Under the pieces are notes generated by a model that worked only from the letters and a program-made list of their open reading frames with translations, was not told where the DNA came from and made no database searches. The translations under genes and the position numbers were made by a program. This document shows positions 7,373-64,000 of a DNA stretch of 64,000 bases, piece after piece. Origin of the DNA: Obrimoposthia wandeli (lineage: Eukaryota); contig CDROCS010001053.1 of NCBI GenBank assembly GCA_977020255.1, positions 248,001-312,000 of the forward strand, read 5' to 3'. Every line of letters starts with the position of its first letter. Position 1 is the stretch's first letter.

Positions 7373-7401
7373 ACAATATTAAAAATGAAAGAGTATATGC
7401 A

Positions 7402-10369: not shown

Positions 10370-10951
10370 TTCCTTCTGTATTAATTTTCATAAATCCACT
10401 TCACTATCTATTTTATAATCTTTTGAAAACCTTTTCAGTTCCACTACAGTCTTTGGTCTCGATTCAAGTAACAACACTTTTGCTACTCTACCAGGAACAT
10501 TTCTAACCGATTTAGATGAGACTATATCCCGTTTATTACGAGCTACTGTTTGTTCACTATCAAAACTGAATAGAAGAGCTTCTTTTTTAGATTCAAAGTT
10601 AATTTTAATAACTTGAAGATATTTTAATCGATTTTTAAATCTGACTTTGTTATTTTCAAATATTACTTTCACTTCTTTATCTATACAATTGTAATATAAT
10701 TGTGCTTTACTATCAAACCCGATCACAACTTCAGTTGTTTTTTCATGATCAACTTCTTTTGTAAACGTAATATGTGAGTTTTTTCCAATAGTAATTGGAG
10801 AATAATAAAACGAAAATTCTGTTAAAGCCGCGTCCCATTCTCCTTGGAGATTTATAGGATTTTCCCCATGGATAATAAAGTTACTAGCATCATTATATCG
10901 TTGAGTCTTCGGGCATCCGTTACTAGGTAACACCATATACATAGACTTCAT
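10369..10951 (-). pseudogene. Minor capsid N-terminal part, right-arm copy
   Basis: ORF 10388-10951 is colinear with 9599-10184. Confidence 0.75.
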
Positions 10952-11627
10952 ATTATATTAGATGCTGATATCCAAGTTGGGTCTGAACAACCATGCCATT
11001 TAACATAGTATTGTTTATATTTACTGGCACCCTTAGATTTTAATACTTTTTTAATAGAAAATTTAAATTTAGGTAAAGAAGCGTAAGCATCCATATCTTT
11101 AGCTGTTTTTGAAATAATTGTTTATGTACGTGTCGCAGCTATAATACTACTGATAATTGAAGCAACAACTGGAATAACAACTCCTATGAAACCACCATTC
11201 TGTTTAAGAATAATATTTCGTTTCCTTTTTTAACTTTTTACATTAGCAATATATAGAAGAGTTTTTCTATATTTCTTTAATATAATTTTCGATTTCCAAC
11301 TTTTACTCGACCCAAAACTATATTATACAAAACTTCCAATAAATCATCTACAACAAAAGATGGAAATGCTTTAAGAATAATCATTCTCTTATGAGAAGAG
11401 GCTTTGACTAAAGCTTTAAAATAGGGTATGCTCTTTGTATTTTCTTCATTTTAATAAAAAAGGTTCAATTTAAATAGTGTTTATATTCGAAGCCATTTAA
11501 GTTTTTTTTATTTCTAACTACAGAATTGATTAATTTTTTCGCTTCTTTTTTCTTAATGATTCTTTTTTTTGATTTCTTTGGCTTTGCTTTACGTTTTACT
11601 ATCAACTTCTTAAAAGGCATTGTAAAT

Positions 11628-12275
11628 TTATCTTTTATAATTGTTCTCTATTTGTTTATAAACAGTTACTCCCTTAGAATTAAATATGTCTGTTAAAACA
11701 CGTAAATCATCTGGGCAAGCTTGTGTAAAGTCAATAAATATATACCCATGTGCTTGTTTAGCAGCATCGTGGAATGAATCAACTAGAAAGTTCTTATTTT
11801 GAGGAAATGCCTGTCTGGCCACAAAATCAACAACTGTTTGATCTCTAGGATTTTTAAATAAAACTAGGTAATGTACATTAAGATTTCTAGTTCTATGGTG
11901 ACCTCCTTGGTGAAACTGATTTTGAGTGAGAAATATAACTGTTAATTCACGATGTCTTGCAATCTTTGTAAATAAATTTTTAAAGTCCGATTCCTTGTTA
12001 GCTTCCTGATACAAATCATCAATTATTATTACATCTTCTTTTTTCAATCTTTCACACCAATTTGCATCAAATCCTTCAATAAATTGTATTATCTTCAACT
12101 TGCAAACTTCTGTTTTGGTTAATCCGCTTTCCCCTCCTCCACCGTGATGCTAATAAATATTTTTGAAGCTAGATTTGAAAAGAGATTCATTTTGCAACAA
12201 TTTACATACGAAATGTGTCTTTCAACTTCCACTGGGACCAACTATTTGAAATACAGCATTATTATTTAGCTCCAT
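11628..12275 (-). pseudogene. Packaging ATPase, right-arm copy
   Basis: GPSGS*KT (TGA in Walker A); downstream ORF 11628-12098 carries VIIIDD and TVIFLTQN. Confidence 0.88.
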
Positions 12276-12613
12276 TGCATAAACTCTTTCAATTTTAATA
12301 TTGTTTATATTATCATAGCAGTTTCTTTATTGAAATGTACAATGTTAGAGCTATTGTAGATAAAATACAAAAATTAATTAATGAATATTTGGCTATAATT
12401 TTATGTATTTGTGTACGATTTCTAAATTCTCGAATAACGTGTGATCTAACCAATATTTCAATGTTATCTCTTGTTATATCATTATTTTTTAATTCTGAAA
12501 AAATTTCTTTATCCCTAATTTTTCCAGAAAATATTTCGTCGGCAAGCCGATCCACTTCATTGTCTCTATTTATAGTATTATTCATTTAAAACAATAAGTT
12601 TAAACGGGTTTGT

Positions 12614-13110
12614 TTATAGAAAAGATAACAAGATGTAATAAGATACATTTTCTAAAATCAAATCAACAATTTCTGGATAATCAAAATTTTTCAATCCCAA
12701 TATCATAACTTTACCACTGAAAAATATATTTACACATAACGGTTTAAACTTCAAATAACTGAGAGCAGGAAAAATTTCTGGTTCAAACATGCATTCTTCT
12801 TTCACTTTCTCTGCAGTTTTAAAAAGATTTATCTGTTTCCCAAGATTAGCCGAAATCGTGATTGATTGTATTGCAGTGATTCGAATTCCAAATGGTAAAT
12901 TGAACCCAAGCATTGGTATTTTGCATCCCATAACACGACAATTTCCTAAAAGAATTCAATATGAAAATAAAAAAACTAACCTGTAGGAAAAATAACAACT
13001 GTGAAATTGTCAAACTTTTCCACATATTGTCTCGGTTTCCATTCATTGAATGGTAAGTGCGAAACATCATCTTCTGTTCTACCTTTATAATTTATATTTA
13101 CGAGTTTCAT
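12614..13110 (-). CDS. TATA-binding-protein-like protein, 153 aa, two exons (13110-12981; 12945-12614)
   Basis: Removing a 35-nt GTTAGT...TTTAG intron gives an uninterrupted ORF. Repeat 1 is FTVVIFPTGNCRVMGCK; repeat 2 is FEPEIFPAL...VNIFFSGKVMILGLK (compare TBP YEPELFPGL...LLIFVSGKIVLTGAK). Confidence 0.8.
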
Positions 13111-14495
13111 TAGACAAAAATTGTATTCTGTAAAATCTTCTTTATATATGTCTGAACCTGCTTTTTTATTGCACGTTTCTTGTAATTATCTTGCAAACCT
13201 AATATAATTGGATGATATATTTATTCCAATCAAATTTGTTTTTTAATATGGATTTAGTTAACCAATGAGATTCATGTTTTTGTTAGAAATTAGTATAAAA
13301 GAATGCACCATTGGAGGACAAATCACAGTAAATGCATTCATATCAAAGACAATTATCAACGTTGGAGGATAGCCAACGGGTATTAAACGGTGACGAAGAT
13401 TCGGAAATATTTGAAGAATCGGATAAGGATATGTATGAAAAAGTGAAACAATATTTCAAATACAAAGTCAGATTCTTGAAGAAGGCTCAACTGATTGCTT
13501 TAGTAAATCCTGTGACAATTGAAAGAAGAAAGTTCAGCTACTATCTCTCAAATATCCAAAAACCAGATTTTCAATAACTTAAACAGAAAATTGAAAAGGC
13601 AGTTCCGAATTTTACTTTCAATAAGAACGAATTTTATATCCTAGGACCAGATGAAGCATTTCTAGATGACTATGGAAGATATGTTGATATTGATGCGTTT
13701 CCGAAAAAGAAGCAATGGACTGTAACAATTCGACTTTATGGTTACAAGAAAGATGAAATGGGAACAAAGTTGCCTATGTGGAAAATTGAACGTGCTCATA
13801 TTTCTATGTTTTAACTTTTGCGTGTAATAAATTGTAATCGGTTTTACTATGTTTCTTTCATTTAATAATCAGTTTTATTTTTTAAATATTTGTATCTTAT
13901 ATGTATTTTATGTGTATTTTTTTATAAACATTATTTTTAATCAGTTTCCATATTTTAGAATGGATAAGAGATGTGTTGCAAATTTTTATTATCCAGAAAG
14001 AATTTCAAAAGGAAAACTATGTAATATATTAAAGAGGCATCAAATTATACGAGTTATGAATCCTGTGAAAATATCAAAAGTGAAGAATAAATATCTCATC
14101 GAAATTTTAACAACATCTGATTTTGATTAATTGAAAAATATTTTGGGATTTTACATTCCTGATTATATATATGAAGGAATTTGTTTCCAGCTTGAAACTG
14201 ATCCCAGTCTAGATTTTAAAGATGATCTAGGATATTTGATTGCTCCAAGTCTAGATGAAGAACTATGGAATATCTCAATACGTCTCAATGGATATTTTGC
14301 TGATGACGGGAAAATGCAGCCTCTTTGGACTTTGAGTGAAGCCAATATGTTGTTTAATGTTTAATAAATGTTTTGAAAAATAATTTTGACTCGTATTTTG
14401 TTTTTTCTCCTCTAAATTAAATAGATCTGACCGATTTTTTATCCTATAAATTCTAAAACTGACATAGATATTTAACATGTAAGGATATTTGATCA

Positions 14496-19800: not shown

Positions 19801-22800
19801 ACCCTAACAAAATTAATTATCAAAATATAATATGTTCATCATGTGATATTTCATCAGGATCAAGTATATCAGGTAGACTATGTTCATTAGCATATAATCC
19901 TAGATATATTCTGATGGGGTTTAAAGAGAAAAACATTACATTTCAAAACAATAATGACTTATTTACACAATATTCTTCAACAACTAATACAGCAAGTTCA
20001 CCAGTAACAAACAAACAGTATTTATAATCCTTACAGATTCAACTAAATAATACACTCCTATAGACTTTAATGAGGATACAAATCTCCAATTCTTTCCATA
20101 TCATAAATATATAAACATGTGTAAAACATCAGATTGTAACCCCAAATTATCATTAATAGATTTTTTCATTTTATATCCTATTTATTTGTTTGATGTTAGT
20201 GATTAAGATGATAGGTTGTCAATAAATAATATTGATGTATATCTCCATATCACTTAATATTCGAATTTTGAAGCTACATCGTACGCTTTAATCTTAGAAA
20301 ACTAAAAAGTGAAATAGGACTCTAAAGGATGCTAAGATTTCGTTCATAGAAAATATTAAAAGGTCTATTAAATGTATAGTTTGTTTATAAATATAGATTA
20401 ATATCAAAGGTTATTGATGATAGTGTTAATAAACTTTTGATAAAGGCTTTGAAATATTGTAAACTTAATGATGATAAAATCAAATATCTAAAAAACTTTT
20501 TAATAATTGCAGAGCTTACATATTGAAAATTAAAATCTAAACAGAATATGTAAAAGTTAAAAATCGTAATGTACCATTCGTATATAATCAGAAAATAAAA
20601 ATTATATCGAATTAGCAAAATAATATAGAAAATTGTATTAAATCAGAAATCTGTAGTTAATCAAAATATCCATAAGGATATGTGTTAATGCCATTATTAG
20701 AAATTACTATTTTATCATCGAAAGGACACAAAACATTTTTATTTGTTCTGTTAGAAACATTTTTTGATAATCACTTGATATCTTTAATTATTTAAATATT
20801 TGGTTTCTTTATTAAATAATGTATTACAGATTTGCTGAAGTAAAACTTACGTTTACCATTATCACGTTTTACATTTATAATATCAAGTAGAGCTTTACGA
20901 TGTTTTTCGAGTGTAGACTTGTGTTTACCAACATTAACGTTACCTTTGACGATATTGAACAGAGTTTCAATCTATCTGTGATTAACAAAAGGTGGAAAAG
21001 ATGTCAGAATACGTAATCTATGTGAAGATTGAGTTTTCAATAGAAGTAGGTGGATGTGTCCGGTCTAATCCACACCCCCTCCCCCCCTACTGTCCTTTAA
21101 AACCGTGCATGTGTGTGGAGTGAAATTTCGTGTAGGTGTGTGGAGTGAAATTTCGTGTATGTGTGTCTTCATCCCACCCAAAGGGGGGAAGGAAGGGGGG
21201 TACCCCCCCACCACATTTTTTAAAAATTTTACCACGAATCTCAAAAGTGGTTAGAGAAGACCACGAGAATCTATATTGACCCCGGCGGCTTTTCGCAGAC
21301 GAGATTTCAAATATTACTACTATTTTTAAGAAAGATTTTAGATTAATAAATTACTACATGTTAAATATCTATGTCAGTTTTAGAATTTAGAGGAGAAAAA
21401 TCGGTCATTCTCCTCTATAATTTAGAGGAGAAAAAAACAAAATACGAGACAAAATTATTTTTCAAAATATTTATTAAACATAAAACAACATATTGGCTTC
21501 ACTCAAAGTCCAGACAGGCTGCATTTTCCCGTCTTCAGCAAAATATCCATTGAGACGTATTGAGATATTCCATAGTTCTTCATCTAGAATTGAAGCAATC
21601 AAATATCCTAGATCATCTTTAAAATCCAGACCGGGATCAGTTTCAAGCTGGAAACAATTTCCGCTCTTGCTGCTGCTTCTCCTTCGTCTCCTTCGCTCAC
21701 CACCGACGAGTATTGTCTAAGTAAGTCAATGTACTGCGCCGGTGGTGGCGTTCGCTGCTGTACTGGAGAGAGATCCCCATACAGTTGAACCTCCGTCTCT
21801 TCATCCAAATCAACGTTGTTGAAAATTGACATTATTTATTCTTGATTAATGATATTTGATTTATGAAAAATAATGAAAAGAGGTTTCCTTATATACAAAA
21901 ATAATAGACTAACCTCTTTTGTCGTCCAATGAGAGCGGGTTATTCAAATAATTTATTTGAAAATCAGTTGGCTTTTCTCAATTTTTTAACTATGTTTGAA
22001 TGCTGGAATGTCATTGGATAAAACATATTTTATTCGAAAATATAACTATTTTCTTAAGATTTTGTTGCTTAAGTTTAACGTCCAATGAAAACGTATTATT
22101 CAAAGAATTTATGGTATTTTCTTAAATTTTGTTGATGTTTGAATACATGTATATCTTTGGATTTAAAATAGTAATATTTTTTTGACTGTACATGTTTGGA
22201 TGGTATAAAAAATTCATGAACTCATTTAAGGTCAAGTTAAGGTCATGACCTTATGAGGTCATTACAGGTCATCATGAGGTCAAGGGTACAAAGTTGTCTA
22301 GGTCATCATGAGATCAAGATCATTTATGGTCATTTAAGGTCATCGTGAGGTCAAGGTACAAAGTTGTCTAGGTCATCATGGGGTCAAGATCATTTAAGGT
22401 CATGATGACTAATTTGATGACTCACCAAATAAAAATGAAAATTATTTCGAATTTATGTAGTTGATTATTTAAAATTTTTTGCGACCCTATATATGTATCT
22501 TTCTTATAAATTCTTATAAAGAAAATTTTTTTTACCACCTTATATATATGTATGGATATAAATTTTTATAAGAAAAATTTTTTCGCCCCCCAGGCCGCGA
22601 AAAATTTTTTTTCGCGAGCCTGTATGTATTACTCGATGATCCACCGCGGACCCGGAGAGCGCGCGTGGCCCGCGGTGGCCCAATGAGCGCAGCGAGTTGA
22701 TCCACCGCGGGCCCAGAGGGCACGCTTTGGCCAATTTACGGCCTCTCAGGACCTTAATCAAAATTTTGGGAGCATTATAAGTTTTTTTAAATTTAAAGGG

Positions 22801-25800
22801 TGTTATAAGGAGTTAATTTTTTTTTTGAGTGTTTGGGAGGGGGGGTAGAAATTTTTCTACACACCTGCACTAAATTTCACTCCACACACATACACGGTTT
22901 TAAAGGACAGTAGGGGGGATTAGACCGGACACATCCACCTACTAATAGAGTTTCAAAGTATGGAATAACGGAAGGGATTTTGATGTCAGACACCAAGTTT
23001 TATAGATTGTTTATGCTCGGCTCAGCCATTGGTCAAAAGCATCACCTTTTTTCGTCAACTTATACCATTTATTCGGCCTTTTCTTTGTTTTTTCTTCTAT
23101 TTCTAACAGATTTATTCCGTTTAACAACTTTTTTACTTTAGCATTGAATTTGCTGTTTTGTAACCCTGTATAACGACCTGATTATTCTTATCTCTAAACA
23201 ACTGATTCTCACTTTTACAGACAGGATTATCAGGTTTCCTTTTAAAGCCTGTCTGTGTGGCAAAAAAATACATATTATTAAATGACATAATTACTCATTT
23301 TAAAGTCTTAGCTTTTTTTAGCACAACCCCGGAAGAGAAAATAGTTTTATAGTTTATACCATTAAATATGATATTTCTTACTCGTAGTATAAGAAATATT
23401 TTACAATATGAATATGTAATAAAGCGGTTTCAGCATGTACAACATGTTTTTAAATATCCACTTGGTAAAAATGCTACTTAAACTTATTTAATAAAATTAA
23501 ATTGATTCGATCTCGATTGTAATAACGTTTCAACAAATTGATCTGACGAGTATCTATTTAAGCATCAATTTCATCATTACTAAGGTGATATCCAACAATA
23601 CATATATTTTTATTCTCATACTAGATTTCATACATCCCTATGTACGAGAAACTCTCTCTCGCATAGTCTTAATAAAGTCAAGACGATATATTACTTTCAT
23701 ACAAAAACAATACCAATATGAACTAATTCAAGTATAGACATGCAACAACAAAAACGATAATGTAAGAATTTCAATATGCTCAAATCATTATTACGTACAA
23801 CTACTTTATCAGGTGAAGTTGTATCAAAATTTATAACATAATCATGGTCTTCAACAACCACTGGTTTATTAGAAACACTGATTTGTATAATGAATAGACA
23901 TAAAGGAAACACTTTCATAGGTTTTATCACAGTGTTACCAATTTGCTAATGAGCATATACAAGTAATCTCATATTTTAATAAATTTGATGCTGTCTTGAT
24001 AATTCCTGCTTTGCTAATTCTTATTTTTGCCCTAAACCCGTATAACTTCTACGTTATGATATTAGTGTAGCCTATTCGTTTTTAAAATCTTAATTTTTAA
24101 CCCTTATATCAGTTTAATGAATTCGTCTAATCCTATATTTTTCACCATTTCGCCACACATAATGCGCAATAAATTCAGATAACTTCAGTGAATCTTGAGT
24201 ATTAGGAGTAGATCAAAAGTATTAATCAAAACAAGTTTGAACTCAAAATCTCAATTAATGACATTATCATCAAACATTAGGATTCTTCCGAGTAGATCAT
24301 GAGCATTAATCATAAAATATTAAAGTGTCATTACCCGCTCCTTAGCTCAGTAGACCTAGACCCTTGACACAAATATTGACCCCCTAGACTCATGAGTCAT
24401 GAGCTATGAGTTTAGCACTTGTCAACACCCCACCTAATAAGAGTTCGACTTATAGTTCATAGCTCATGACTCAGAGGGGTTCTGCTTAGCTAATGAGCTA
24501 GATATGACACTTTACTCTTATTTCATGGAATCTGCCTAGGTCCTTGTCGAATATGTGGTGTTGTAATTAAGAACGAATTGATACGTACCAAGTTCATGGG
24601 GAAGCTCCTCGCACAAAACCGCGATTGATAGACTTAGCCCTGTGAAAATGTCACGAGAGAAAGCAGCCCCGATCGATAGTCCATCGATGAAATTGTGCAG
24701 TGCATCACCAAATATGATCATCCAAGCGATGGGAGCTACTTTCTGGAGAGAAGAGAACATAAAATATCTCGATCAATCTCTTCTTTGGACCATTCTGGGC
24801 CTTGTCAAAAATAAATGTGAACAAAAATTTTAGGATGTTATCACTTATACACTGTTAACACAAGAACGCGCCATGCTTTTATGAATACGTTCTTTAATCA
24901 AATCGGGTTTTAAATTTAGCTGTGAAACGTGTAAATCAAAAGCAACGCGTTTTATAAAGTATTTAATTTTTTAAGATTGCCAAAATTCTTTTGTTATAAG
25001 AAAGACTTCTCCGCATTTATTTTGGAACAGGAAATTTCCATTCTTTAATTAGATTTTGCATTTAATGAGCTATGAAACGTGTAAATCGTAAATGTAAACG
25101 TTCCATTGAGTGTTTTTTTAAATTGCATACATATGATGCGTCAAAGGATAGAAACTTTGCTCTCATCTTGGAATGGTTAAGAAATGATCGTCTAATTATA
25201 ATTGAAAGCATTCTTTCAAACCCAGGTAAGATTTTTTATATTCTCTCATGATTTTAAAAATGGTAAAAAAAATATTGAAATGAATCATATTAAGAAAATA
25301 ATTAGGAGATTTAATGTTCAAGATCATACTTAAAATCAAGTTAGCTAAATATTATTACACTTTTTACTGCTAATTGTAAACTGTTGTGAAGTTTAAATGC
25401 TAATATCTCAAAAATTTGATATTATTTCTTCGATTTGGATACTTATACTGTCAGTTGTTTTAGTTTATTTTTCTAGAAATTTTTACAATTTGGTTGCAAC
25501 TTTAAAACTTGAAATTGTTGAATCAGTATATGTATTTTAGACTCTATTTGAGCATTTATCAACAAATCAACTAGTTCAATTGTATAGTTTTTAAGTTGTT
25601 TTTCTTTTATAGATTATTGTTTCTCTAAATTTTGCATTTACAAAGATTGAAGTATACTTCAAATTTTTATAAGATATCTTATTCGCTATAGATGTATTAA
25701 TAACCTGGGTAAATCCTGATTCCAGGAGCCCAGTTTCATCAAATGAATCTCGATAATTACTATTTTACAGTGGATTTTTTAAAATTATTATTACTTTATA

Positions 25801-28800
25801 TAATTTTTTGCAAAAAAGCTTTTACCAATCTTTACATGTTTGATAAATGAGTGACATGAGCTGTGAAGATGAATTTCATATGAAAGCGACAGTGAAACAT
25901 GTCTAACTTAACACCAGAAGCAATACGAGAGTGACGATTCTGATGATGATGTTAATTATGGGCCAGATGAAGATGAAACTGCAGTATTTAGGGATCTACA
26001 GTTGACAATCTGGACATAGTTACTCAAAGAAATAAGTAATATTGGGGAAAAGAATTGTTTTATTGTTTGTATGTATGGAATTGTATATTACCTAGGTTGT
26101 CAATAAATGCTTAGTCGTCTTTTCATTGAATTTATCTTTTATTACAAAAAATTATAATATACTTTAAACATTCTTGTACAATTGAACATTTAAACTTACT
26201 AAAGAACCAGAAAATTTGGCTCAATATGCCATCAAGTACATGTTTATAGAAATGAAACAAGTCAAAAATTGTCATAAATAATATACTTATTAGTGTTACA
26301 AAATTACGTTATATTCCTTTTTTAATAATTAAACAAATAAAAAAGGGAAAACTTTATAAAATTAAAATACATAGTACTCACGACTTTGGATGCCTTGACC
26401 ACTTCCACGCTCGTATTGTCCTTTCCGTTTTTCTTCCCTTCGCTTAATTCACAAACCTAGAAAAATGTTATCATCATCATCCTTGCACTAACCACCTCAT
26501 CCACTGTATGGTCTACAGTTACATCCAGTGACTCGCTCCTCTCCATTCGCGACCTTGATTGCCGATGCGCATTCATTGAGCCATGGTGCTGCTTGTCGTC
26601 ACCGTGACTTCGAAATGAAAGCTGCTTACTCTAAATGAGAAAATCCCCATGTTATATTTGCAAAATTCCCCCCACAATGGCTCAATATGAGTGACATAAT
26701 CAGAATGAGGTTTTTAATTTTATCAAAATATGTTATTTTTCAAAGTTATATTATATTAAAAATCAAATTGCATATGAGACACAAAGTTAGTTGAAGGATT
26801 TAATAATATTGAGTAAAAGTTCAAATTAAATTACCTTTTTTGAAGCTTTAACTAAAAAAATATTCCCAGTTTACAATGCATAGTTTTATAACAAATTAAC
26901 TTTAAATACTTAGGCTGTCTGATAAGTTCTAAGAATGCACGCACACATAATTGAAACAAGTATACTAAATATTTATAAAACATGTATAAATATTAGGGTG
27001 GTCCTTAGCAATGTTACAACAACAAAAATTTCGATTTTTAAGTGTCTCACCCTCTTATATGGTTTCTATTTACATTGAAAAGCAACATCCAAAATTTGAT
27101 TAACTTTACTTAATATTTAGGGGTAGCTCAAGCGATCCAAAATTTATACATTGTACTCGTTTAAGGAAAAAACATGAAAATTACTAGTGTTCAAAATGCA
27201 AAGTGTCATAAAAGTTTATATCAAAGTGTTCAATTGTTCATAATAGTTTATAATATTTTGTAATGCTAATACACCTACACTACAGTCCTACAATTTGTTA
27301 TCCAGAATATTTAACTTGAAGTATGAAAAGTTAGAGCAGCAACGATTTCTTGCAGAAAGGCACACGATTTCGGTTATCCTGAACGACTTGTATAAGAAAT
27401 TGTTTTTGTTGTTCATCGGTAGTAATTTTATCGTTAAACTGTTCCATGAGAGCGACTCCCCTCTCTGCATTGTCATTGACCACACGTAACTGGTTCACTA
27501 CCTGCAGACCAGAACAATAATATGGACAAGATTGCCAGGTTTCCGGATCAGAGTCGAGAAATGATGTATCAATTTGAAGCTTGGTAAAGAAATTCATGGT
27601 ATTCTTTGTAACAAAATCACTGATAGTTATGTCAACAGCTTTATCAAGGTCCAGTCGAATTCTTGCTGGAGGTACACGTACTCCATCCTTCTCCTTCATC
27701 GCTTTCACCATGGCACGCTTGCATGTGGTAGAGATGGCTGCATCGAAAAATCCCATCGCCACAAGCTCTTCACTCAGATACCAGAGATGTGCGCAAAATT
27801 TACAGCAAGCAACTTTGGACAACGTGGGATTCGTGTTCTTATACTTGATAAGGCGTCGCAAGAACAAAAGATCATTGCGTGGTGCTGAAATAGGTAACGG
27901 TGCTGTAAACCACGCCTTGACGTATACAAGAACAATAAAGAGGCAAACATCCTCTATACCTTTTTGCTCTTGTTCAGTAAGCTGAAATTGTTGCTTGAAG
28001 AGCCATATTTTTAGGCAATACAATGCTTTGGCCAACCATTTTGCATGATGCATGGCACCTGGGGATCTAAATCGCACCCCATTTGGAGGAATCTTTGTGA
28101 ATGATTTGTGATTAATTTTAGTGCATCTGCATGGGCTATATCAAAAAGATTGTCTAATTCTTCCACAAACACACTTTCATTCTGCTTCTGTTTCCCACCA
28201 CTTCGGCTTGCATTTTTCTTAAGTAATGTCCAATTTTGGTGGAGCACTTCAAGTTTAGCGATTGAGTGCTGCTCCTGGCGCATCGGTATTCGTGCTTTGT
28301 GCCAAAATAACGCCACCTCTCGAAGTACAGATGTCGAGCTCTCACGAATTGTCTTGCTCAATGTTTTATGCGGGTAGCAGAACACACTCAGGACTTGTCT
28401 ATTTGAAGGAAGCTTGACACCACTCAATGACTTTTCTTCTCCTCCAATTAACCATATAACTTTCTTACTTCTGGTATCAGCTGCTGATGCAGTTGCCATG
28501 TTCTTGTAATGTGTTGTTTGCCTCTGTGAACTGAATGATTAGCGATAATAGAATAAATTTATCACTAGTTGTAGTATTAACTATTAACTAGTTGTATTTG
28601 TTTACCTTCAAATATAAACGCCAATTAAGTAATTTTTCAAAATAGTTTAACTCACTAATAGTTTGTCTAACAAGTATTAGCAGAATTATTAAAATTGTTT
28701 AAACTACAAAAACAATTAGGTCAGTAGTAATAACATTTCTAACGTGATAAACAGTGCGAAAGTTCAAGGTCACTGAGCGACCACTAAATATTAATTATTT

Positions 28801-44298: not shown

Positions 44299-44760
44299 TG
44301 TTGGGGTTTCTATATGAAACTGTTTCTAATATATATCTTCTGAATGGAGGGCCCCAACGTGAGTTCTATAGAAGCAGGACTTGTAGATGTTTGTGGCCTA
44401 CTTAATGTTATGCTTGCCTGTCTGAATTCTTAGCTGAAGGTCTGTTGTCTCTAGATTTGAAGGGTCTGTAATAAAGCTGTCTAGTTGTAGGAAATCGTTT
44501 ATTACTAAGCACACTAAATTAAAACGTCTAAGAACGTTCTAAAAATTACAATACAATTCCTAAGACTTCCGTAAGTCTCTACACAAGAAGGGATGATCCA
44601 CGTAACGATTTTATTTTAGGGTTGGTTGGTCACTAGAGTCTTTACTCTAAAATGTGGCAAGGTTAAAGTAGTAGGTTTTTTGGAGCGCTGGTTGCTCTAA
44701 AATAGGAGTAGTTTAGAGAGCTGGTGCTCTAAAATAGGAGTTGTTTAGAGAGCTAGAGCT
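44299..44760. repeat. Truncated LTR related to 2624-3313
   Basis: TGTTGGGGTTTCTATATGAAAC...GGAGG.CCCCA.CGTGAGTTCT is shared. It ends abruptly at the Polinton junction and has an internal ~32-bp duplication at 44690-44756. Confidence 0.7.
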
Positions 44761-47700
44761 CGAAACAATTTCCTTCATATACATAATCAGGAATGTAAAA
44801 TCTCAAAATAACTTTCAATTGATCAATATCAGATGTTGTTAAAATTTCGATGAGATATTTATTCTCCACTTTTGATATTTTCACAGGATTTATAACTCGT
44901 ATAATTTGATGCCTCTTTAATATATTACATAGTTTTCATTTTGAAATTCTTACTGGATAATAAAAATGTCCTACATATCTCAGAAGAGGATCCATTCTAA
45001 AATAAAGAAACGGATTAAAAAACAATGTTTATAAAAATTGCATATAAGATACATATAAGATACAAATATTAAAAAAATAAAACTGATTATTAATTGCTAA
45101 ATGAAAGAAACATAGTAAAAATAAATAAAACCGATTACAATTTATTACATGCAAAATGAAAGGAAAAAAAACTGTTAAAACAAACGGATATGAGCACGTT
45201 CAATTTTCCACATAGGCAACTTTGTTCCAATTTCATCTTTCTTGTAACCATAAAGTCGAATTGTTACAGTCCATTGCTTCTTTTTCGGAAATGCTTCAAC
45301 ATATATTTCTCTTCCATAGTCATCTAGAAATGCTGCATCGGCTCCTCGGATATAAAATTCGTTCTTATTGAAAGTAAAATTTGGAACTGCCTTTTCAACT
45401 TTCTGTTTAAGATATTGAAAATCTGGTTTTTGAATATTTGATAAATAATAACTGAACTTACTTCTTTCAGTTGTCACAGGATTTACTAAAGCAATCAGTT
45501 GAGCCTTCTTCAAGAATCTGACTTTATATTTGAAATATTGCTTCACTTCTTTATACATATCCTTATCTGATTCTTCAAACATATCTAAATCTTCATCACT
45601 GCTTAATTTACGTTGGCTATCGTTCATCATTGATAATTGTCTTTGATATGAATGCATTTATTATGAGTTGTCCTCCAATGGCATATTATTTTATACTAAT
45701 TTGTTAAAAAGACATGAATTTCGTTGGTTAATATAACTAAAGCATTGAATTTGATTGGACTAAATCCAAAATTAAAAATCAAAATTATTTGGAAGAAATA
45801 TATCATCCAATTATAATAGGTTTGCAAGATAATTACAATAAATGTGCAATAAAAAAGCAGGTTCATAACATATATAAAGAAGAATTTACAGAATACAATT
45901 TTAGTCTAATGAAACTCGTAAATATAAAATATAAAAATGAATTTTCGTACTTACCATTCAATGAATGGAAGCCGAGACAATATGTGAAAATGTTTGATAT
46001 TTTACAGTTGTTATTTTCCCCGCATGTTAGTTTTTATTTTATTTTCATATTGAATTATTTTAGGAAGTTGTCGTGTTATGGATGCAAAATACCTTTGGAT
46101 GACTTCAATTTACCACTTGGAATTCAAATCAGCGCCATACTTCCAATCACAATTTCATCTAATATCGGGAAACAAATAAATCTTTATAAAATTGCAGAAA
46201 AATGAAAGAAGAATGCATGTTTAAACCGGAGATTTTTCTTGCTTTCAGATATTTGAAGTTTAAACCGCTTTGTGTAAATATATTTTCCAGTGGTAAAGTT
46301 ATGATATTGGGATTGAAAAATTTTAATTATCCAGACATTGTTGATTTGATTTTCGAAAATATATTTTATTACATCTTGTTATCTTTTTTCTATAAACAAA
46401 CCCGTTTAAACTTATTGTTTCAAATGAAGAATACTATAAATACAGACAATGAAGTGGATCGTCTTGTCGACGAAATATTTTCTGGAAAAATTAAGGGTAA
46501 ACAAATTGTATCAGAATTAAAAAACAATGATATAACAAGAGATAACATTGAAATATTGGTTAGATCACACGTTATTCGAGAATTTAGAAATCGTACACAA
46601 ATAAATAAAATTATAGCCAAATATTCATTAATTAATTTTTTGTATTTTATCTACAATTGCTCTGACATTATACATTTCAATAAAGAAACTTCTATGATAA
46701 TATAAATAATATTAGAATGAAAGAGTATATGTAATGGAGCTAAATAATAATGCCGTATTTCAAATAGTTGGTCCCAGTGGAAGTTGAAAGACACATTTCG
46801 TATGTAAATTGTTACAAAATGAATCTATTTTCAATTCTAGTTTCAAAAATATTTATTGGCATCATGGTTGAAGAGGGGAAAGTTGATTAACCCAACAGAA
46901 ATTTGCAAATTGAAGGAATTAAATTTATTGAAGGATTTGATGCGCATTGGTGTGAAAGATTGTAAAAAAGAAGGTGTAGTAATAATTGATAATTTGTATC
47001 AGGAGGCTAACAAGGAATCGGACTTTAATAATTTATTTACAAAGATTGCAAGACATCGGGAAGTAATTGTTATATTTATCACTCAAAATATTTTTCACCA
47101 AGGAGGTCATCATATAACAAGAAATCTTAATGTACATTACTTAGTTTTATTTAAAGATCCTAGAGATCAGAAAGTTGTAGATTTCGTAACCAGACAGGCA
47201 TTTCTCCAAAATAATAACTTTCTAGTTGATTCATTTCATGATGCTACTAAACAAGCACATGGGTATATATTTATTGACTTTACACAAGCTTGCCCAGATG
47301 ATTAACGTATTTTAACAGACATATATAATTCTTAGGGAGTAACTGTTTATAAACAAATAGAGAATAATTATAAAAAATAAATTTGCAATGCCTTTTAAGA
47401 AGTTGACAGTGAAACGTAAACTTAAAATAAAGGCAAAGCCTATGAAATCAAAAAAGGAATCATTAAAAAAAGAAATGAATAAATTAATCAATTCGGTAGT
47501 TCGAAATAAAAATAAACTTGGATGGCTTCGAATATAAACAATATTCAAATTGAACATTTTTTAAATGAAGAAAATACAAAGAAGCATACCCTATTTTAAA
47601 GCTTTAGTCAAAGCCTCTTCTCATAAGAGAATGATTATTCTTAAAGCATTTCCATCTTTTGTTGTAGATGATTTATTGGAAGTTTTGTATAATATAGTTT

Positions 47701-48720
47701 TGGGTGAAGTAAAAGTTGGAAAACGGAAAAATGTATTAAATAAATATAGAAAAACTCTTCTAGATATTGCTAATGTAAAAAGTAAAAAAAGGAAACGAAA
47801 TATTATTCTTAAACAGAATGGTGGTTTCATAGGAGTTGTTATTCCAGTTGTTGCTTCAATTATCAGTAGTATTATAGCTGCGACACGTACATAAACAATT
47901 ATTTCTAAAATCAGCTAAAGATATGGGTGCTAAAACTTAAATTTTCTTTCTATTCAAATTGTTGTAATGGAGAAGATATGGTTCAATCCAAAAGATCCAA
48001 TTGGCTACACAGGAGTTTCAAAATTAGCAAAAAGAACAAAACAGAATTACAAGAAACCGCAGAAATAGATGAGCGATCAGTTAGCCTACAGTTTGAACAA
48101 GCCGATAAGAAAGTTTCCAACAAGAGCTTACAAAACCAGCGGTCCTAATAATTTATGGCAAATTGATTTGATGGAGATGATCCCATATTCTTCCATTAAT
48201 AAGGGATACCGATATATTTTAACATGTATTGATGCATTTAGCAGGTTTGCTCGTACAATCCCAGTTAAAGCAAAGTCTTCAATAGCTATGTTTGGAGCCA
48301 TTAAAGAAATATTAAAAAAAGTACAATCCGCAAAAATCTTCACACTGATTTAGGAAAAGAATTTTATAATATGCAAGTTCAATCATTATTGGAACAAAAT
48401 AATATAAATCAGTTCCGGTGTTTTTGCAGTACAAAGCAGCAGTAGTAGAAAGATTTAATCGTACTTTAAGAGATTGAATAAGAAAGTATTTCACAAAAAA
48501 GGAAATAAAAAGTGAATCCAATTTTTGCCTAAAATAATACATGCACATAATCACTCTGAACATAGAAGTCTTAAGGAAATGAGACCTGTTGATTTTTTAC
48601 GAAAAATACATAAAAAAAAACAGAGAACAATAAGATACAAATATTTATTAAATCAAAAAGAAAAAATTAAGTACAATAAATTTGTGACATATAAATTCAA
48701 ACATACAAAAACAATCATTC
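44757..48720 (+). mobile_element. Third copy of the Polinton left-arm gene block (ORF135 partial, ORF160, TBP-like, ORF90, ATPase, pX-like, integrase partial); no TIR
   Basis: Colinear with 5465-9200: ORF160 45175-45657, TBP-like from 45909, ATPase 46734-47380, integrase from ~47922. Confidence 0.9.
47565..47894 (+). CDS. Basic 109-aa protein ending in a QNGG|F hydrophobic tail (adenovirus pX/mu-like core protein candidate)
   Basis: Intact ORF ...KSKKRKRNIILKQNGGFIGVVIPVVASIISSIIAATRT. Damaged copies at 8229-8487, 11122-11449 and ~20830-22990. Confidence 0.7.
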   Translation: MKKIQRSIPYFKALVKASSHKRMIILKAFPSFVVDDLLEVLYNIVLGEVKVGKRKNVLNKYRKTLLDIANVKSKKRKRNIILKQNGGFIGVVIPVVASIISSIIAATRT

Positions 48721-56290: not shown

Positions 56291-58578
56291 AATATTTTTT
56301 TTCCATTAACTGTATTCTTAAACGGGCCACAAAAATCTCTATATAAACTTTCTTATGGCTCATTGGCAGATAATGTTATAACATTTTCTTTATTACGTCT
56401 TGTATAAGTCTTTCTTTTCTGACAAATCGTTCATGATTTAACTATACTTCTGGTCATATTTTCCGAATCTTTTATATAAAAACTATTTTTAATCTGACTT
56501 AATACTTTCATTGTGCCAGTATGAAATAAATCTTTGTGCAATTGACCAACAAAAGCTGACATCTCTTCTAAGGGATGTATATTTTCCAACTACGATAAAT
56601 ATTATCAGAATGTATACTGAATTCACAGTTTTCATTATTGTCAATTGGTTTTCTGATGTTAAATATCTCTTTTGAAAACTGTTTTAATTCGTGAATTTTT
56701 GATACTTCTGATATAACTAACATTCTCGTTTTCAACTTTTCTGTCTTTCGATTTATATGCGTCAAATGGCATTGTTTACATGTGTCAATATTCATCCGTG
56801 AAAGAGCATCAGCATTTCCATGCAAGTCTTTTTTTTTAATATCAAGACTACTCAAAAGGTTCATCCAATTTTGAAATTGTGATGTAATCGGCTTTTTTGT
56901 TGTCATCATGAATGTAATTGCCTTATGATCCGTTCTTAGAAGAAACTTTTTCCCATATAAAAAATGTTTAAAGTTCTGAGTAAAATGAAATACTGATAAA
57001 AGTTCCTTACGGGTTATACAATAACCGATTTCATGTTTACTCATACTCTTCGATCCATACGCAATGACTCTTTCATTGCTATTTTCATTTAACTGCGATA
57101 AAACTGTTCCAATTGTGTCAAAACTGGCATCTGTATATAAGATAAATTCCTTCTTAAAATTAGGATGAGCTAAAATTGGAGATTTTAACATTTGCAGTTT
57201 CAAAATATTAAAAACATTTTTACATTTCTCGCTCCACATCAATGTTTTCTCTGTTGTGGTAGTCAAACTTTATAATGGCTTGGAAAATTGCGAATAATTT
57301 TTAATGAAGTTTCTATAATAATTCGCAAGACCCATAAAGCTTCGTAAGTGTTTCACACGTGTTAGTTTCTTGAAATCAACTAATTACTTTATTTTTTCCT
57401 GATCAGTTTTTATTCGTTCTTTATTTATAACGTGTTGAAGAAACTTCAATTCATCAACACAAAATTTACATTTTTCCGAATTAATCCTCAGTCCTGACTC
57501 TGCTATTCGTCCAAATAATTTTCGAAATCTTATTTTATGTTCTTTTATAGAATTAGTAAATATTAAAATATCATCTAAATATACTAAAGCTTCAGTTCAA
57601 ATCATATCTTTAAAGATAATTGTCATTTATTTTTGAAATGTTGACGTAGCTGCTGCAATTTCGAAAGGCATTCTATTGAAGCAATATTGTCCAAACTTCG
57701 TAGAGAAAGCTGTTTTATGTTTACTTTCTTCATCTAATTCAACCTGATAATAAACACCTTCTATGTCTATTGATGAAAAGTATTTTGCGCCATAAAGTGC
57801 ATCAAGCTTTTATTCAACATTAGGAATTGGTAAAGCAGGTCTTATGGTATTTTTATTCAATAATCTGAAATCTAAGCACATTCTAATATCTGTTGTATTT
57901 TTATTTTATATGCATAGTATTTATTATGCATAGTAATTCCACAGTGATTCACATTTAGATATTATTCCATTTTCTTCGAGATTTTCAACTAATTCTAGAA
58001 TCTTTGTTTCATAGTGCATTTGTTGTTGACGAGGTTTGATATTTATTAGAGTACATTCATTCAATATTCTATGTTTTAGTACCTCGGTTTTTCCTATGTC
58101 CTAATTATCTTTCATAAATATATTTCCAAATTCTTTACAGATTGGTAAAACTTCCTTTATATTTTCGGTACACGTTTTCAAAAATGTTTTACAACGATCA
58201 TCTTGACTTACTGAAAAACCAAATTTATTTTCTAAATTATTTACTTCATTTAATAATTTTTCATCGATGTTTTTCACGGAACTTAAACGATCAAATTCGG
58301 CCTATTTAAAATTCAACTTTACCAAAATATTGAATCCTAAAATTATGCTCGGTTTAATTTCTTTCGCAACTTAGAAAAATCCAACTATGTTTTTTAATTT
58401 GTGATCCAAAGCTGTACATAATGTACCTAATATTTCCTTTAGCAGATGAAACGTTATTTTTATTCATAATCTTATTCATTCTACAATTAATTATATCTAA
58501 AACATCTTTACTTATTACACTTATTTTAGCACCAGTATCTAATAAACAACTTATTTTTATATTATTCAACTCAATGTT
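56290..58578 (-). mobile_element. pol: Ty3/Gypsy pol fragment (protease, RT, RNase H, start of integrase)
   Basis: LLDTGA; YFSSID...KTAF...RMPF; VYLDDILIF; ILYTDAS...IAYGS...KELL...LRTDHKA; DFCGPF. Cut at 58578 by the Polinton insertion. Confidence 0.9.
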
Positions 58579-59121
58579 AGTAGGTGGATGTGTCCGGTCT
58601 AATCCACCCCTCCTCCCGCGGGAGCTACAACTATCCTTTAAAACCGTACATGTGTGTGGAGTGAAATTTCGTGCATGTGTGTACGCGAATTTTTATTTTT
58701 TTTAAATTGAAAAAGCAACGAATAGGGGAAGAGTACCCCTTTGGGGCGGGCTTTATTCTAGTTTTCCGGGCGCGAAAATAACTAAAAAAATAATACCCTC
58801 CGATCGCTATAGTATTTTTCTTTCACTTTAACCATCTATACATACCCCCAAAAAATACCACCCACCGAATAATCCACACCCACCGAATCACACCACCCAC
58901 GACCCATACCCCACCCCAAAAAAGGTTTTTCGCCCCTCCTGGGGCAAAACACTCCGCCAACTGCCCGCCCCTTCGGGGCGGGCTTTATTCTCAATCTTGA
59001 GGTGTGAAAATAACTTTTTAAAAAAATTTAATAAAACGCTCTCATTGGACTATTAAAGAGGGTTAGTAAGATGTTTGTGTATATAAAGACACCTCCGTTC
59101 ATTCTTTTTCATAAATCAAAA

Positions 59122-61014
59122 ATGCCATTCTACAACAACGTCACTTTGGATCAAGAGACGGAGGTTCACCTGTATGGAGATCTCTCTCCAGTACAGCAGC
59201 GAACGCCGCCACCGTCGCAATACATGGACTTACTTAGTCAAAACTCGTCGGTGGTGAGCGAAGGAGAAACAGCAGCAAGAGCGAACCTGTTAGAAGAAGA
59301 AGCCCCATTGGCCAGCTCAACTCCTAGAGAAGAATCACTGGATGTGAGAGGTGGGATACAGAAAACCCAATATATCAACCTGACTAGTCAGGATTCGATT
59401 GAGAATTGGGAAGACTGTACTCCCCGTCAGAACCCATAAGCCACTCGTCCAGCAACATCGGCAGTAGCAGCAAGGAGATCCAATCTCTTCGACAATTTTG
59501 AGGCGGCAATCAAACACCCCTGGAAATTGATCCCGCTCTCTTAGCTGGAGATAGTCCTCACACCAGACTCAGATGAGGAGCTGTTCACTGATGACGTACC
59601 GTTGGATGGGGAGGAGGACTGGACTTCATTCATCGACGAATGGATACAGCCAAGTATCGGAGCCCCAGGAGCCAACGATTCGATGGTAGCAGAATTGGAC
59701 GAAGACGAGTGGCACCTGTTCACCGACGATTGAGATGGCCTCACTCCAACTCCGAAAGCGGATAATACAGTGCCTGAACCATTCAAAAGGCCGAAATATC
59801 CGATACGTGCTGTTAGGAGAATAAAAGTGACGAATGAGGTTAGCCTATTAATTTATTTTAAATGTTTTTTAATTTCATTTTCAGAAACTTCAACTGGATT
59901 TGGCACCGTCAGTGACCACGACGGAGAAACTGATAGAATCGCAGTACTTGGCGAGTCAATGCAGCCAGGAGCTGCTAAGGAGTGAGCTCCAATACCTAGC
60001 GTCTCCAGATAATTTTAACGTAAATTATTTTTTATTTAGATATTAAATTTAATAATTCATTTAGGTGGAGATTATTCTCAAAGAGGTGACACATATTCAA
60101 CCAGTGGATAGGAAGCAAGCGGCGGTTAAAAAACCTCGACGCCATCAGGTCAAAACCCACACGATCCATCGGAAGAAGACTAAGTTGGTGAAACAGGCTA
60201 ACCTGCCCGTCATTGAGGTAAATTATTTATATGTTTAAATTTTATTAATATTTTTGTTGTAGGAACCCGTCCGGATAATTGAGGAGACATGGGGAGAAAT
60301 TACTCCTTTCCCCAAGAAACAGATGAAGCGAGCAGAGGTGAAGAAGACGAAGCGCTCGAGAAAATTCTGCACCACAATTCGCCATTCTTCTGAGGCGGTG
60401 ATTAGTCAGCAGAAGATTCTTCCATCTCCAGTGGATGACGGGCCAATTCTGTACGAGAGAATACATGTCTCTCCGATCGAGATTAGTCCACCACCGAGTC
60501 AACGACGCCTTCAGGAGACAGTACGGGCTCCATTAAATATCAGTCAAAATTTGGCTAGGGATTGGGGGCTGCTTCTCCTCGTCCAACAACCAGCCAGAAC
60601 TTGAAGAGGGCCTGGGATGAAGCTGGATTGGACAAATTCCTGGCGGAACTAGATACACCAGCAATGCTTCCAGATTCGCGAGGGCAACAAGATGCTGTCT
60701 CATGTCAGCTTCAGCGTGAGAAGGAGGAGAAACTAAAGAAAGCTCTGCAGGAGAGGAAGGCTACTACTTCTAAGTCGGGGCCATCAACATCGGCTGCACC
60801 TCCTCCCAAAAAGTTGCGGCAACTACTGCTAAAATCTCAGGCAACGTCAATTATTGCACAACAACCGGTGAAGCCGAAAAAGAAACCTGGCCAGCCAAAG
60901 AAGAATGAGCCAGTACTGCTTTCTCCAATTAAAAACAGTCAAAGGAATTTCGATGAGGATGATCCCAGTGATGACTTTGTGAGGATTTTTAAAAATATAA
61001 TTTATAAAAAATAA
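59122..61014 (+). pseudogene. Large multi-exon Polinton accessory gene (acidic, Pro/Ser-rich and Lys-rich blocks)
   Basis: Starts MPFYNN. Three phase-0 introns (59839-59884, 60020-60064, 60218-60262) keep an open frame; stops and frameshifts occur at ~59437-59740 and ~60560. Confidence 0.7.
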
Positions 61015-61020
61015 TTTCAT

Positions 61021-61419
61021 GTGTTTCATCCTTTGCATTTCATATTTCATATAGATATCCCGTTTAGGAGTTTAGATTATAAGAAAAAAATTACTAATTT
61101 ATATCTAACTAATTATTTCCATTTATTAAAATGGAAAGAAGGACTAAAGGCTTTTTGTGAAATATGTATTTTCGATACAATAAAATCTAATTTTGATATA
61201 GAAAATAGAATTTTTTATGTTTTAAATGAAATGGATGGCAAAAAGTATAAAACTTTAAAAAAATATTTTCCAAATTTGAGGTTGAATACTTTAAATATTT
61301 CACGTGATCATCTATTAAAAATTCCACAAAATATTTTCTGTCCATATCGTAATCATGGTGACCATTGCGCATATAAAAAATGTTTAAGTCTATCTTATTA
61401 TTACTTGACATGTAGATAA
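61021..61419 (+). pseudogene. Exonuclease-type accessory gene, probably 5'-truncated
   Basis: HPLHFIF...NLYLTNYFHLLKWKEG...CPYRNHGDHCAYKKCLSL; homologous to 52620-53108. Confidence 0.55.
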
Positions 61420-61677
61420 ACAATTCTTCTAATTGGAGAAAATCATTATTTACAAAATACATTTTTCATCCAATTACAATTATAAATGACCAATCCTTTT
61501 AATTGGAGGAATAAAATATATTAAAAAATAAAATTATCAACCAATAACAGATAAACAATCCTTCTCAGTGGAGGAATAAATTCCTTTTTTTCATCCAATA
61601 AGAAAAGAGCATGTGTGCATAAATTTTAGTATATAAGCAAACACTTTCTTCATTTAAATCCCCGACTATTTGAAATA

Positions 61678-62330
61678 ATGACTATGGTAAGAAACTATAT
61701 TTATTATTTCTTTATTAATATTTATTTTTTAGATTATGTGTGACCTGTTTCCAACCTATTGTGGTGCTTCGGCTCCGCATGGAAAAGAGTCATGCATGGA
61801 GCTAGTGTCTGCCTACTATCGGAAAAAGTCTCATGGGCTTCAATTCTTCGTATGCCCCTTCTGCAGAACAATGGAGGAGAGGGAGTTTCGAGAATTCTTC
61901 GGTGAACATCGAGATCACCTATCGTGTTTCACTGCCAACAACAAGAAGAGGGCTATCATGCAATTGGTGTGCGATTCGCAGGTCGCTCAAGCTCCTTCCC
62001 CTGTTCCAGTTGCAGTCGTTCAACCCGTGTACGGTTCTGCGATTGGTCCTTCTCTCCCGTCTCCTGATTCTGCAGCTGCCTCATCTACTCAAATGACTAA
62101 CAATGAGTGGATGAACGACATCTCCCAAGAATATTTTGAGGAGTTGGCGCCAGCAACCCAATTCTCGAACAATAGAAAATATCACCCAGTCAGATTTCGA
62201 GATGGAGCAGCCTCAGTGGAGCGACAACAGCTGGTTGGAGACCATCGAGAAATCCGATTTCGTCGAGTTAACGGACGACAGCTGGATGGATGAAGAGGAC
62301 TTCTAACCAGCTACAGTTGGATTGCCTTCA
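61678..62330 (+). CDS. Spliced Polinton gene with FFVCPFC...HRDHL motif and acidic Trp-containing tail
   Basis: Micro-exon ATGACTATG, 46-nt intron 61687-61732, then in-frame IMCDLFP...; upstream CCAAT boxes and TATATAAG at ~61629; possible frameshift near 62160. Confidence 0.6.
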
Positions 62331-62424
62331 TTAGGTATTTTTTATTATTTTTTTTCTGATTATTTTTTAAAATTGTAATTATCGATATTTTATTTTTATT
62401 TTTTATTCAGGAAATACGATATCT

Positions 62425-64000
62425 ATGCCTCTCCCAACGCGAGTACCTACATCGATGTTTACACGTCTTAGAAGTAATACTTTTTTTAAAAAAAAATTTT
62501 TCATGTATTTATTTCAGCAGCATCAAACTCTACAACAGCTGCTTCTTCGTCGAAAATGTCGGCTACTACCTCATCTACTCCAACTTCAAATGTAGCCTCT
62601 ACAACTGCCACTGTTTCATAATCTGCGGCAGCACCTACTACAGCAGCACCGTCTACATCAGCTGCATTTACCTCAACATCGGCTGCACCACCAATAGCAG
62701 CCCCTTCCACATCAGCTGCGATTGCCTCAACATCGACAGCACCAACATTTAATATAAATCGTTGTCTTCCCGTTCAATTAGGGGGAGGTTTGTCCGCAAC
62801 TGTAGAAAGAAAGAGACGAGGCCAATTTCTTAATAAGGTCCCACCAAAAGAACGTAGAGAAAACGGTGCTACTATAGATTATAACCTAAATAATAAATAT
62901 GTTAAAGTTAATTTGCCATTAGGAAATAAAATTTTATTAAACGTAGGTGTAGATACAAATATTGAAAATCTTTTAAAATCAGATGGGATTAAATTAGGAC
63001 AGGCTAAGGTTCAATTTTACGCAACAGTACAGTTTAAAAATGTCAATGAGGAGACTACAACTTGGGTAATTTCACATAAAGCAACTGTTTTCTATGATAA
63101 TTTTGTAACTGAAATTGGAAGAAACCTAGATGAAAAAATTGCTAATTATAGCGAGTTAAGTAGTGGATGGACTCTAGTTAGAATTCACGATGTTAGCTTT
63201 GTTCTAACAAAGTTCACTGACATGATATATCTTTCGGGGAGTTCATACATTCCTTCACCTAGATCTCTTCAACTTTCACGTTCCATGGTTAACGTACAAA
63301 ACAGTGATAACCTTTGCTTTCTGTATAGCATGTTGGCCATCTCAAAAGGGATGTAATTACTGAGAATAGAGAGCGTGTCAGTAAATATATTCTTTTTTAA
63401 ATGAATTGCAGTATCATGGAATACATTTTCTTGTTAAATTAACTGTGATATCAAGATTTGAACACCTTAATAACTTGAGTATTAATGTATTCAAATATAA
63501 TACTGATATCCCAGTTAATGTAACAGATGAAGAAAATTTTAAAAATCCTTTTGTAGATGTAATTTATAGGAGCAAAAATGAGGAGACTCATGTCAACTTA
63601 ATTTTGCTCGAACATAATAAAAAATTCCATTATGCTACAATTCTCAATTTAGATCGTCTTCTAAATTTAGATAATGGAGCCTTACCGGTTAGGATAAGGT
63701 GTAAGTGGTGTCATAGATGTTTACATGTATTCCGATCCGAGCTCTCTTACAAAAAAATCTGACATTATGTACACTGAATCCTGATGACAATACGCTATAT
63801 AGCATGCCTAAGGATAAGGATTTTAAATTCAGGGATTGGGCAAAATGCTTACTCGTGGAATTCAGGGGGTATGCTGATTTTGAGTCAATTCTAGCATTGC
63901 ACGACCAGTATGAGAGTATTCACCTACCGGCTTCAGCAGGACTACTATTCTTAGGCCCCAATATTACACAGTATCATAAATTTTCCGGTCCAAATTGTAT
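62425..64000 (+). pseudogene. polB: Protein-primed DNA polymerase B, N-terminal region to exonuclease I motif
   Basis: SSGWTL...LSGSSYIPSP...VNVQNSDNLCFLYS; SRFEHLNNLSINVF; HVNLIL...FHYATI.NLDRLL; CHRCLHVF; GYADFESIL. Stops at 62619 and 63354, plus frameshifts. Confidence 0.9.

Follow-up and report, generated by a model that had tools for sequence, protein, structure and literature searches.

A degenerate copy of a putative multi-intron accessory gene at the terminus of a Polinton from Obrimoposthia wandeli

The adenovirus E1A gene lies at the left end of the genome. According to the available part of PMC8097293, vertebrate Mavericks carry intronless genes, and accessory regions flank their core modules. 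The core genes of nematode Mavericks are also described as intronless in the accessible portion of bioRxiv 10.1101/2022.07.12.499685, which describes a high-GC region, flanked by the left repeat and the integrase, whose cargo genes contain introns. Nematodes thus already offer a precedent for GC-rich genes with introns beside Maverick termini. The Oncoids of adintoviruses, as presented in the available part of PMC8502044, are defined by LxCxE, CR1 and CxxC, and their genes are located upstream of PolB; the accessible part of the supplement of that paper makes no mention of introns, splicing or TBP. Introners populate Polinton-like (eupolintoviral) elements of dinoflagellates, as stated in the accessible part of PMC12166617. 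Questions raised by animal Polintons include how their genes are controlled and whether the elements pass through an autonomous nuclear cycle.

The gene considered here (the terminal gene) lies in a stretch of 64,000 nucleotides that was analysed as a whole and is called the window (Table 1). The AG(T)-starting terminal repeat that marks a Polinton or Maverick was found at 58579; the right end of this copy lies beyond the window. The end sequence at 58579 is common to four other ends in the window, two on the forward strand (4917, 21045) and two on the reverse strand (14916, 22943). Near ends of the same family, Pfam searches identified an rve domain at 8670 (E 5e-11) as well as weak matches to Pox_A32 at 7642 and to Capsid_N at 19167; integrase, packaging ATPase and capsid genes were absent from the part of the focal copy that is visible in the window. 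No match to the terminal repeat was found in bacterial and archaeal genomes, and Rfam gave no match on 58400-64000. Two claims of a preliminary description of this DNA were borne out: the Polinton setting, by the shared terminal repeat, the target-site duplication of a mini-element and the downstream polymerase fragments, and the location at the element terminus, since the gene is the first one inside the repeat, behind CCAAT and TATA boxes.

Table 1. Coordinates of the terminal gene, its surroundings and related features in the window
Feature	Position	Strand	Remarks
Left terminal (inverted) repeat	58579..58683	+	starts AGTAG; interrupts minus-strand Gypsy-like protease frame
GC-box module, two copies	58736-58791, 58968-59027	+	77% identical repeat
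E2F-type site	58770	+	in first GC-box module copy
Core promoter	59044..59086	+	CCAAT box (reverse, 59044), TATA box (59080)
Exon 1	59122..59838	+	239 codons, acidic, disordered; stops at 59437, 59542, 59731
Intron 1	59839..59884	+	46 nt, 17% GC, phase 0, GT-AG (GAG/GTTAGC..CAG)
Exon 2	59885..60019	+	45 codons; only open forward frame; codon model
Intron 2	60020..60064	+	45 nt, 9% GC, phase 0, GT-AG, in-frame stops inside
Exon 3	60065..60217	+	51 codons, 25% K/R, NLS-like
Intron 3	60218..60262	+	45 nt, 11% GC, phase 0, GT-AG, in-frame stops inside
Exon 4	60263..61014	+	basic, Pro/Ser/Thr-rich; frameshift ~60560-60604; 3' end uncertain
Neighbouring gene	61015..61419	+	stand-alone ~160-aa family, N-terminally truncated here
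5' part of polymerase unit	61630..62520	+	TATA 61630, ATG 61678; frameshift and one or two stops
Polymerase-unit introns	61687-61732, 62335-62410, 62474-62517/20	+	GT-AG candidates
Ser/Thr/Ala-rich linker and presumed protein-primed DNA polymerase	62514..64000	+	fragmented, runs off window
Second copy of promoter and first ~57 codons	21662..21955	-	inside 1.9-kb mini-element
TBP-like gene	12617-13185; ~6640-7050; 45975-46390	-; +; +	beside ATPase and integrase

The mini-Polinton at 21045-22943 is a non-autonomous element with both terminal repeats and a 6-bp target-site duplication (AATAGA), and it arose by an internal deletion that joined two terminal regions. The 5' end of the gene reads inward from one of its termini, and both CCAAT and TATA are retained. 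The presence of the promoter and the gene 5' end in a second insertion indicates that the gene is resident in the element family. Comparison of the two copies over 47 codons gave 33 identical codons, 4 synonymous and 10 nonsynonymous differences; purifying selection was not significant over this length (pN 0.10, pS 0.16, p=0.35). The strict E2F-type word occurs twice in the 64 kb (14770 and 58770), each time within 200 nt of a Polinton end, and shuffling of 58579-59121 gave P=0.035 for the site at 58770. Two further genes of this element family likewise have TATA and CCAAT boxes upstream, so the promoter does not mark the terminal gene as early.

Other elements were noted in the window. One Polinton module forms a large inverted duplication (5230-14428 and 9487-11061, about 93% over 3 kb) and has a third copy at 44757-48596; the termini at 4917 and 14916 showed no matching target-site duplication. 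Two apparently related small genes, at 5843-6325 (-) and 5250-5465 (-), lie close to the other terminal repeat and have further copies, and one of the two has a triple CCAAT and a TATA box upstream. Gypsy-like retroelement pieces are found at the window start (560-1805, reverse strand, with a gag-like zinc knuckle) and at 56568-58578 (-), where RT-RNaseH is accompanied by a protease frame, assigned by its motif, that the Polinton insertion cuts. Two ORFs at 27331-28538 (-) resemble a DNA-transposon transposase remnant, and the one tested gave no Pfam match.

The preliminary description had placed three AT-rich GT-AG introns of 45-46 nt in phase 0 within the gene, and all of them are present at those positions. 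Within 59122-60960, exactly three troughs have a GC content of 20% or less over 45 nt, and they coincide with the three introns. With 20,000 shuffles per intron, the probability of finding both a donor and an acceptor no more than 4 nt from the edges of the trough came to 0.093, 0.075 and 0.119 for introns 1 to 3, which corresponds to a joint chance of about 8e-4 if the three are independent. In exons 2, 3 and 4a, two of the three forward frames contain stops, and the one left open is the spliced frame. A leave-one-out codon model, which was trained on the same element and is not fully independent evidence, favoured the called frame in 4/4 segments of these exons and in 11 of the 12 training segments overall. 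Each intron contains a branch-like TTAAT word 16-18 nt upstream of the acceptor, and the features of U2-type introns (GT-AG ends, a branch-like word and junctions that restore the frame) were found in all three. A GT-AG scan of the whole window returned 13 rows, representing about 10 places, and at least one of its candidate introns was demonstrably coding; the case rests on frame logic and not on GT-AG ends alone. On these grounds we consider the predicted three-intron structure well supported. The three introns are not mutual copies (P 0.30, 0.42, 0.06), and an introner origin was rejected.

A further, GC-rich intron of 201 nt (59344-59544), the removal of which would take out two of the exon 1 stops, was also considered. 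The segment has a plausible donor and acceptor and flat codon periodicity, the codon model weakly favours the exon frame (0.016 vs -0.042 and -0.078), and a motif typical of the element lies in frame inside it. Codon evidence thus leans weakly against this putative intron, which we regard as improbable. With it removed, one stop and the exon 4 frameshift would still remain.

The preliminary description had read a continuous frame over 59122-61014 and missed that the copy is broken: three stops interrupt exon 1, exon 4 is frameshifted, and the 3' end belongs to a truncated neighbour. Even so, exon 1 has far fewer in-frame stops than the average of 11.8 in shuffles (P=0.002). The reading frame of exon 4 ends at 60602, and from about 60560 the coding sequence carries on in another frame. 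The final stop is at 61012, and the last codons are in frame with the neighbouring gene, which is truncated at its N-terminus. Since these codons lie in the frame of a neighbour that has lost its start, the true 3' end of the gene is uncertain; the two genes were probably joined by a deletion. We conclude that the terminal gene is very probably a broken (fossil) copy of an element gene. A minus-strand gene at the locus was rejected because a coherent open frame is absent.

The neighbouring gene is 35% identical to a gene of a second Polinton family (53108-52635, reverse strand), and a search covering proteins of 86-279 aa found 13 unnamed homologues of 155-190 aa among 78 candidates. Its profile match begins at position 33 of 166, so that the first 32 positions are absent. 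All 13 homologues are stand-alone proteins and this copy lacks the start of the neighbour; in-frame fusion as the normal state was therefore rejected. This conserved family sits upstream of the polymerase in both Polinton families. Its tested members gave no Pfam match above the cut-off and no PDB match, and none of 25 candidates from bacterial and archaeal genomes was a homologue. An acidic N-terminal motif of the family is reminiscent of DEDD nucleases.

The predicted product of the terminal gene has about 585 codons, with only 4 cysteines in all. FoldIndex was negative in four of the five exon pieces, and a single-sequence AlphaFold model of the last piece (pTM 0.22) consisted of isolated short helices and one coiled-coil-like helix. 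These predictions point to a protein that is largely disordered; its N-terminal third is acidic and the rest basic. Residues 142-203 contain 34% D/E and no K/R. The acid-aromatic block of exon 1 (about 59545-59730) contains LFTDD twice, and this repeat carries three synonymous differences (P=0.023 for the whole exon, 0.006 for the acid block). CK2-type acidic sites are also present.

The acidic block with W and F residues and the Lys-rich, NLS-like blocks reported earlier were both found, and the activation-domain predictor proposed as a check gave a positive result for the acidic block, as it did for two other ORFs. The predictor was the Staller rule (PMC10550315 eq. 1), which asks for a 39-aa tile with a charge of -9 or below and at least 7 W, F, Y or L residues, combined with a diagonal term; it was built on human transcription factors, and its revised form has a PPV of 0.2-0.7. 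Among 201 tiles of exon 1, 19 passed, 9 of these without an X. In stop-free ORFs of at least 60 aa across the whole window, 18 of 11,647 tiles passed, half of them from this block; the passing tiles come from three ORFs, namely the acid-aromatic block, a polymerase-side tract and an unrelated ORF at 14131. Shuffling exon 1 (2,000 times) yielded at least 19 passing tiles in 0.6% of cases and at least one in 16.5%. The product is likely to have been a nuclear regulator; a role as a transcription regulator specifically is a tentative assignment, to which we give somewhat less than even odds.

Introns do not appear to be confined to the terminal gene. The preliminary description had contrasted it with intronless core genes, a contrast that does not hold here, as tiny GT-AG introns are also predicted in the 5' portion of the polymerase unit and in a TBP-like gene. 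In the polymerase unit starting at 61678, the first candidate intron is in phase 0 and directly follows the third codon, and the phases of the two later ones lead into the polymerase frame. This 5' part encodes a CxxC..HxxH finger, followed by an acidic W/F tract. The fragments at 62514-64000 are homologous to the polymerase of the second Polinton family, and their motifs suggest a protein-primed polymerase. The polymerase pieces gave no Pfam match, and the N-terminal piece had no homologue among 975 candidates. The divergent second Polinton (about 48.6-56 kb, reverse strand) has a candidate GT-AG intron of 41 nt right after the ATG of the homologous unit, and its finger matches that of the focal unit (43% over 35 aa, E 3e-7) and lies in one frame with the polymerase, with 4 stops in 326 codons. 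An intron within the first codons, a CxxC..HxxH finger and a Ser/Thr/Ala-rich linker are thus common to both families (61678-62520, forward, and 52463-51441, reverse). Another candidate intron in the polymerase of the second family (51310-51269) was rejected, as the segment proved to be coding.

The TBP-like gene, which is found near ends of the same family, was recognised by Pfam TBP with 42.8 bits (cut-off 22.9). It contains a GT-AG segment of 35-38 nt, the removal of which joins two open frames in one of the three copies; the other two are broken at this segment. The junction falls at a TBP-type motif, and the upstream piece alone gave no Pfam TBP match. The gene may possibly encode a late transcription factor of the element. 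The tiny introns of the polymerase-gene 5' extension and of the TBP-like gene seem, from the sequence, to be the newer observation, and their reach into these genes is more unusual than the terminal gene itself. The keyword passages and search listings of the literature that were consulted contained no report of a Polinton core gene with a spliceosomal intron.

The explanation we favour is that the locus preserves, in decayed form, an accessory gene resident in an animal-type Polinton (Maverick); taken together with the activator role set out below, this reading has in our view a probability of roughly 0.45. Spliceosomal introns together with TATA/CCAAT promoters imply host nuclear transcription. 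We strongly infer that, while the family was active, the host nuclear machinery transcribed the gene from an RNA polymerase II-type promoter and spliced it and, with moderate confidence, that the K/R blocks took the protein into the nucleus. There, the acid-aromatic block may have bound coactivators or general transcription factors. As a recognisable DNA-binding fold is absent, promoters would have been reached via partner proteins or by non-specific chromatin binding, and the outcome would have been a raised expression of the replication and virion genes of the element. The product would have acted as an early regulator in the manner of a motif hub and not as an E1A homologue.

An element-encoded TBP-like protein would be in keeping with a programme that controls its own transcription. 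A broader version of the proposal, which we consider doubtful, is that this lineage has an adenovirus-like, splicing-dependent nuclear gene programme. The terminal spliced activator, under E2F-type and GC-box control, would turn on the spliced polymerase unit with its zinc-finger and acidic extension, and the element-encoded, also spliced TBP-like factor would drive the virion genes. If so, this would be an animal Polinton with its own early/late cascade, and introns would mark autonomous nuclear transcription.

Several other explanations were weighed against that of a resident accessory gene with a regulatory product. A spliced element gene may have encoded a disordered scaffold, an anti-silencing or a chromatin protein instead of an activator, with hydrophobic-acidic patches that bind SUMO/Atg8-family-like partners and a basic part involved in DNA binding or in the organisation of replication foci. 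Some two thirds of the product are basic and rich in SP/TP, a similar acidic tract is found on the extension of the polymerase, a less likely place for activation, and the product contains the SIM-like words YINLT and EIVLT (FVELT in the polymerase-side tract) as well as a LIR-like word. Yet general SIM patterns matched at chance (P 0.17-0.44), and only a pattern tailored to the sequence looked significant; the LIR-like word sits in the uncertain 3' junction. The SIM consensus (hXhh/hhXh cores with acidic flanks) follows the available part of PMC8616421. We regard the scaffold explanation as rather unlikely. That the AT-rich segments were never spliced, and represent small insertions or decayed patches in a pseudogene, is the least credible proposal. 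A look-alike, the rejected candidate at 51310-51269, proved coding and an antisense GT-AG pair overlaps intron 1, but all three troughs have proper ends, similar size, phase 0 and the only open frame, and two divergent polymerase units each have an intron within the first codons at the same position.

Capture of a host gene as cargo, with introns inherited from the host as in nematode Mavericks, would account for the high GC content of the gene (47-50% vs 28-34% in neighbouring genes), for its introns and for its position next to the repeat, all of which match the cargo region as portrayed in the available part of bioRxiv 10.1101/2022.07.12.499685. Against this, exon 1 had no homologue in 1.84 billion representatives, among which eukaryotic host proteins are perhaps thinly covered, and the GC-rich style, the tiny introns and a 17-nt identical stretch recur in the polymerase unit. 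Exon 1 (with X at stops) likewise had no homologue among 1,995 candidates of 420-2000 aa. Pfam searches of the exon pieces, exons 2-4 included, gave no more than PCNP (E 0.02) and TilS_C (E 0.15), neither of which reached the cut-off; in PDB sequences, the best E was 0.93 for exon 1, and there was no match for the last piece. The identical 17-nt stretch is shared by exon 4 and the polymerase linker, a length reached in none of 1,000 codon shuffles, and a common 10-mer lies in the same codon phase at all four places. Both favour an element-born gene over fresh host cargo, and the sequence suggests such an origin; capture of a host gene appears improbable. The last alternative is a true retinoblastoma-binding protein of the E1A/Oncoid type whose motifs decayed in this copy. 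Its end position, splicing, disorder, upstream E2F-type site and CK2-type acidic sites would agree with this, as would the location of Oncoid genes 5' of PolB in the accessible part of PMC8502044. In the five exon pieces of this broken copy, however, LxCxE next to a CK2 site had no match, and the CR1 pattern (DEN)(LIMV)xx(LM)(FY), the CxxC of a paired zinc site and PxDLS were all absent; the protein has few cysteines, and the CxxC close to the polymerase is part of another unit. The gene product is not an E1A/Oncoid member, the earlier label "E1A-like" stands as an analogy only, and we consider decay from such a protein very unlikely.

The copy is a fossil, intron-bearing terminal genes have a precedent in nematode Mavericks, and the activator role is a prediction from composition. 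With intron junctions, RNA of the element can be told from its DNA in ordinary RNA-seq data. Should the polymerase unit be spliced, its start and its zinc-finger extension escape ORF-based annotation, and the rule of intronless core genes, as stated in the available part of PMC8097293, would not be general.

Compared with known systems, as portrayed in the accessible parts of the respective sources, the element resembles vertebrate Mavericks (PMC8097293) in its AGT-type ends, the 6-bp target-site duplication of the related mini-element, flanking accessory regions and mostly decayed copies. With the adintovirus Oncoids it shares an accessory gene upstream of PolB and acidic CK2-type sites, whereas the LxCxE, CR1 and CxxC of the latter are all missing. 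Adenovirus E1A (PMC5930299) is a spliced, motif-based nuclear protein, as the product of the terminal gene is predicted to be; unlike E1A, the product described here is about twice as long and is without sequence match, LxCxE, CR1, zinc finger or PxDLS. Dinoflagellate introners (PMC12166617) also provide spliceosomal-type introns inside Polinton-like elements, but the three introns of the terminal gene are not mutual copies. The nematode cargo region (wasp/krma) is alike in being high-GC, poorly conserved, intron-containing and located between the repeat and the core genes. Nematode cargo consists of host-type proteases and kinases, in contrast to the orphan disordered protein found here, which shares sequence with the polymerase unit; and whereas the core genes of nematode Mavericks are intronless, the polymerase unit of this element carries candidate introns.
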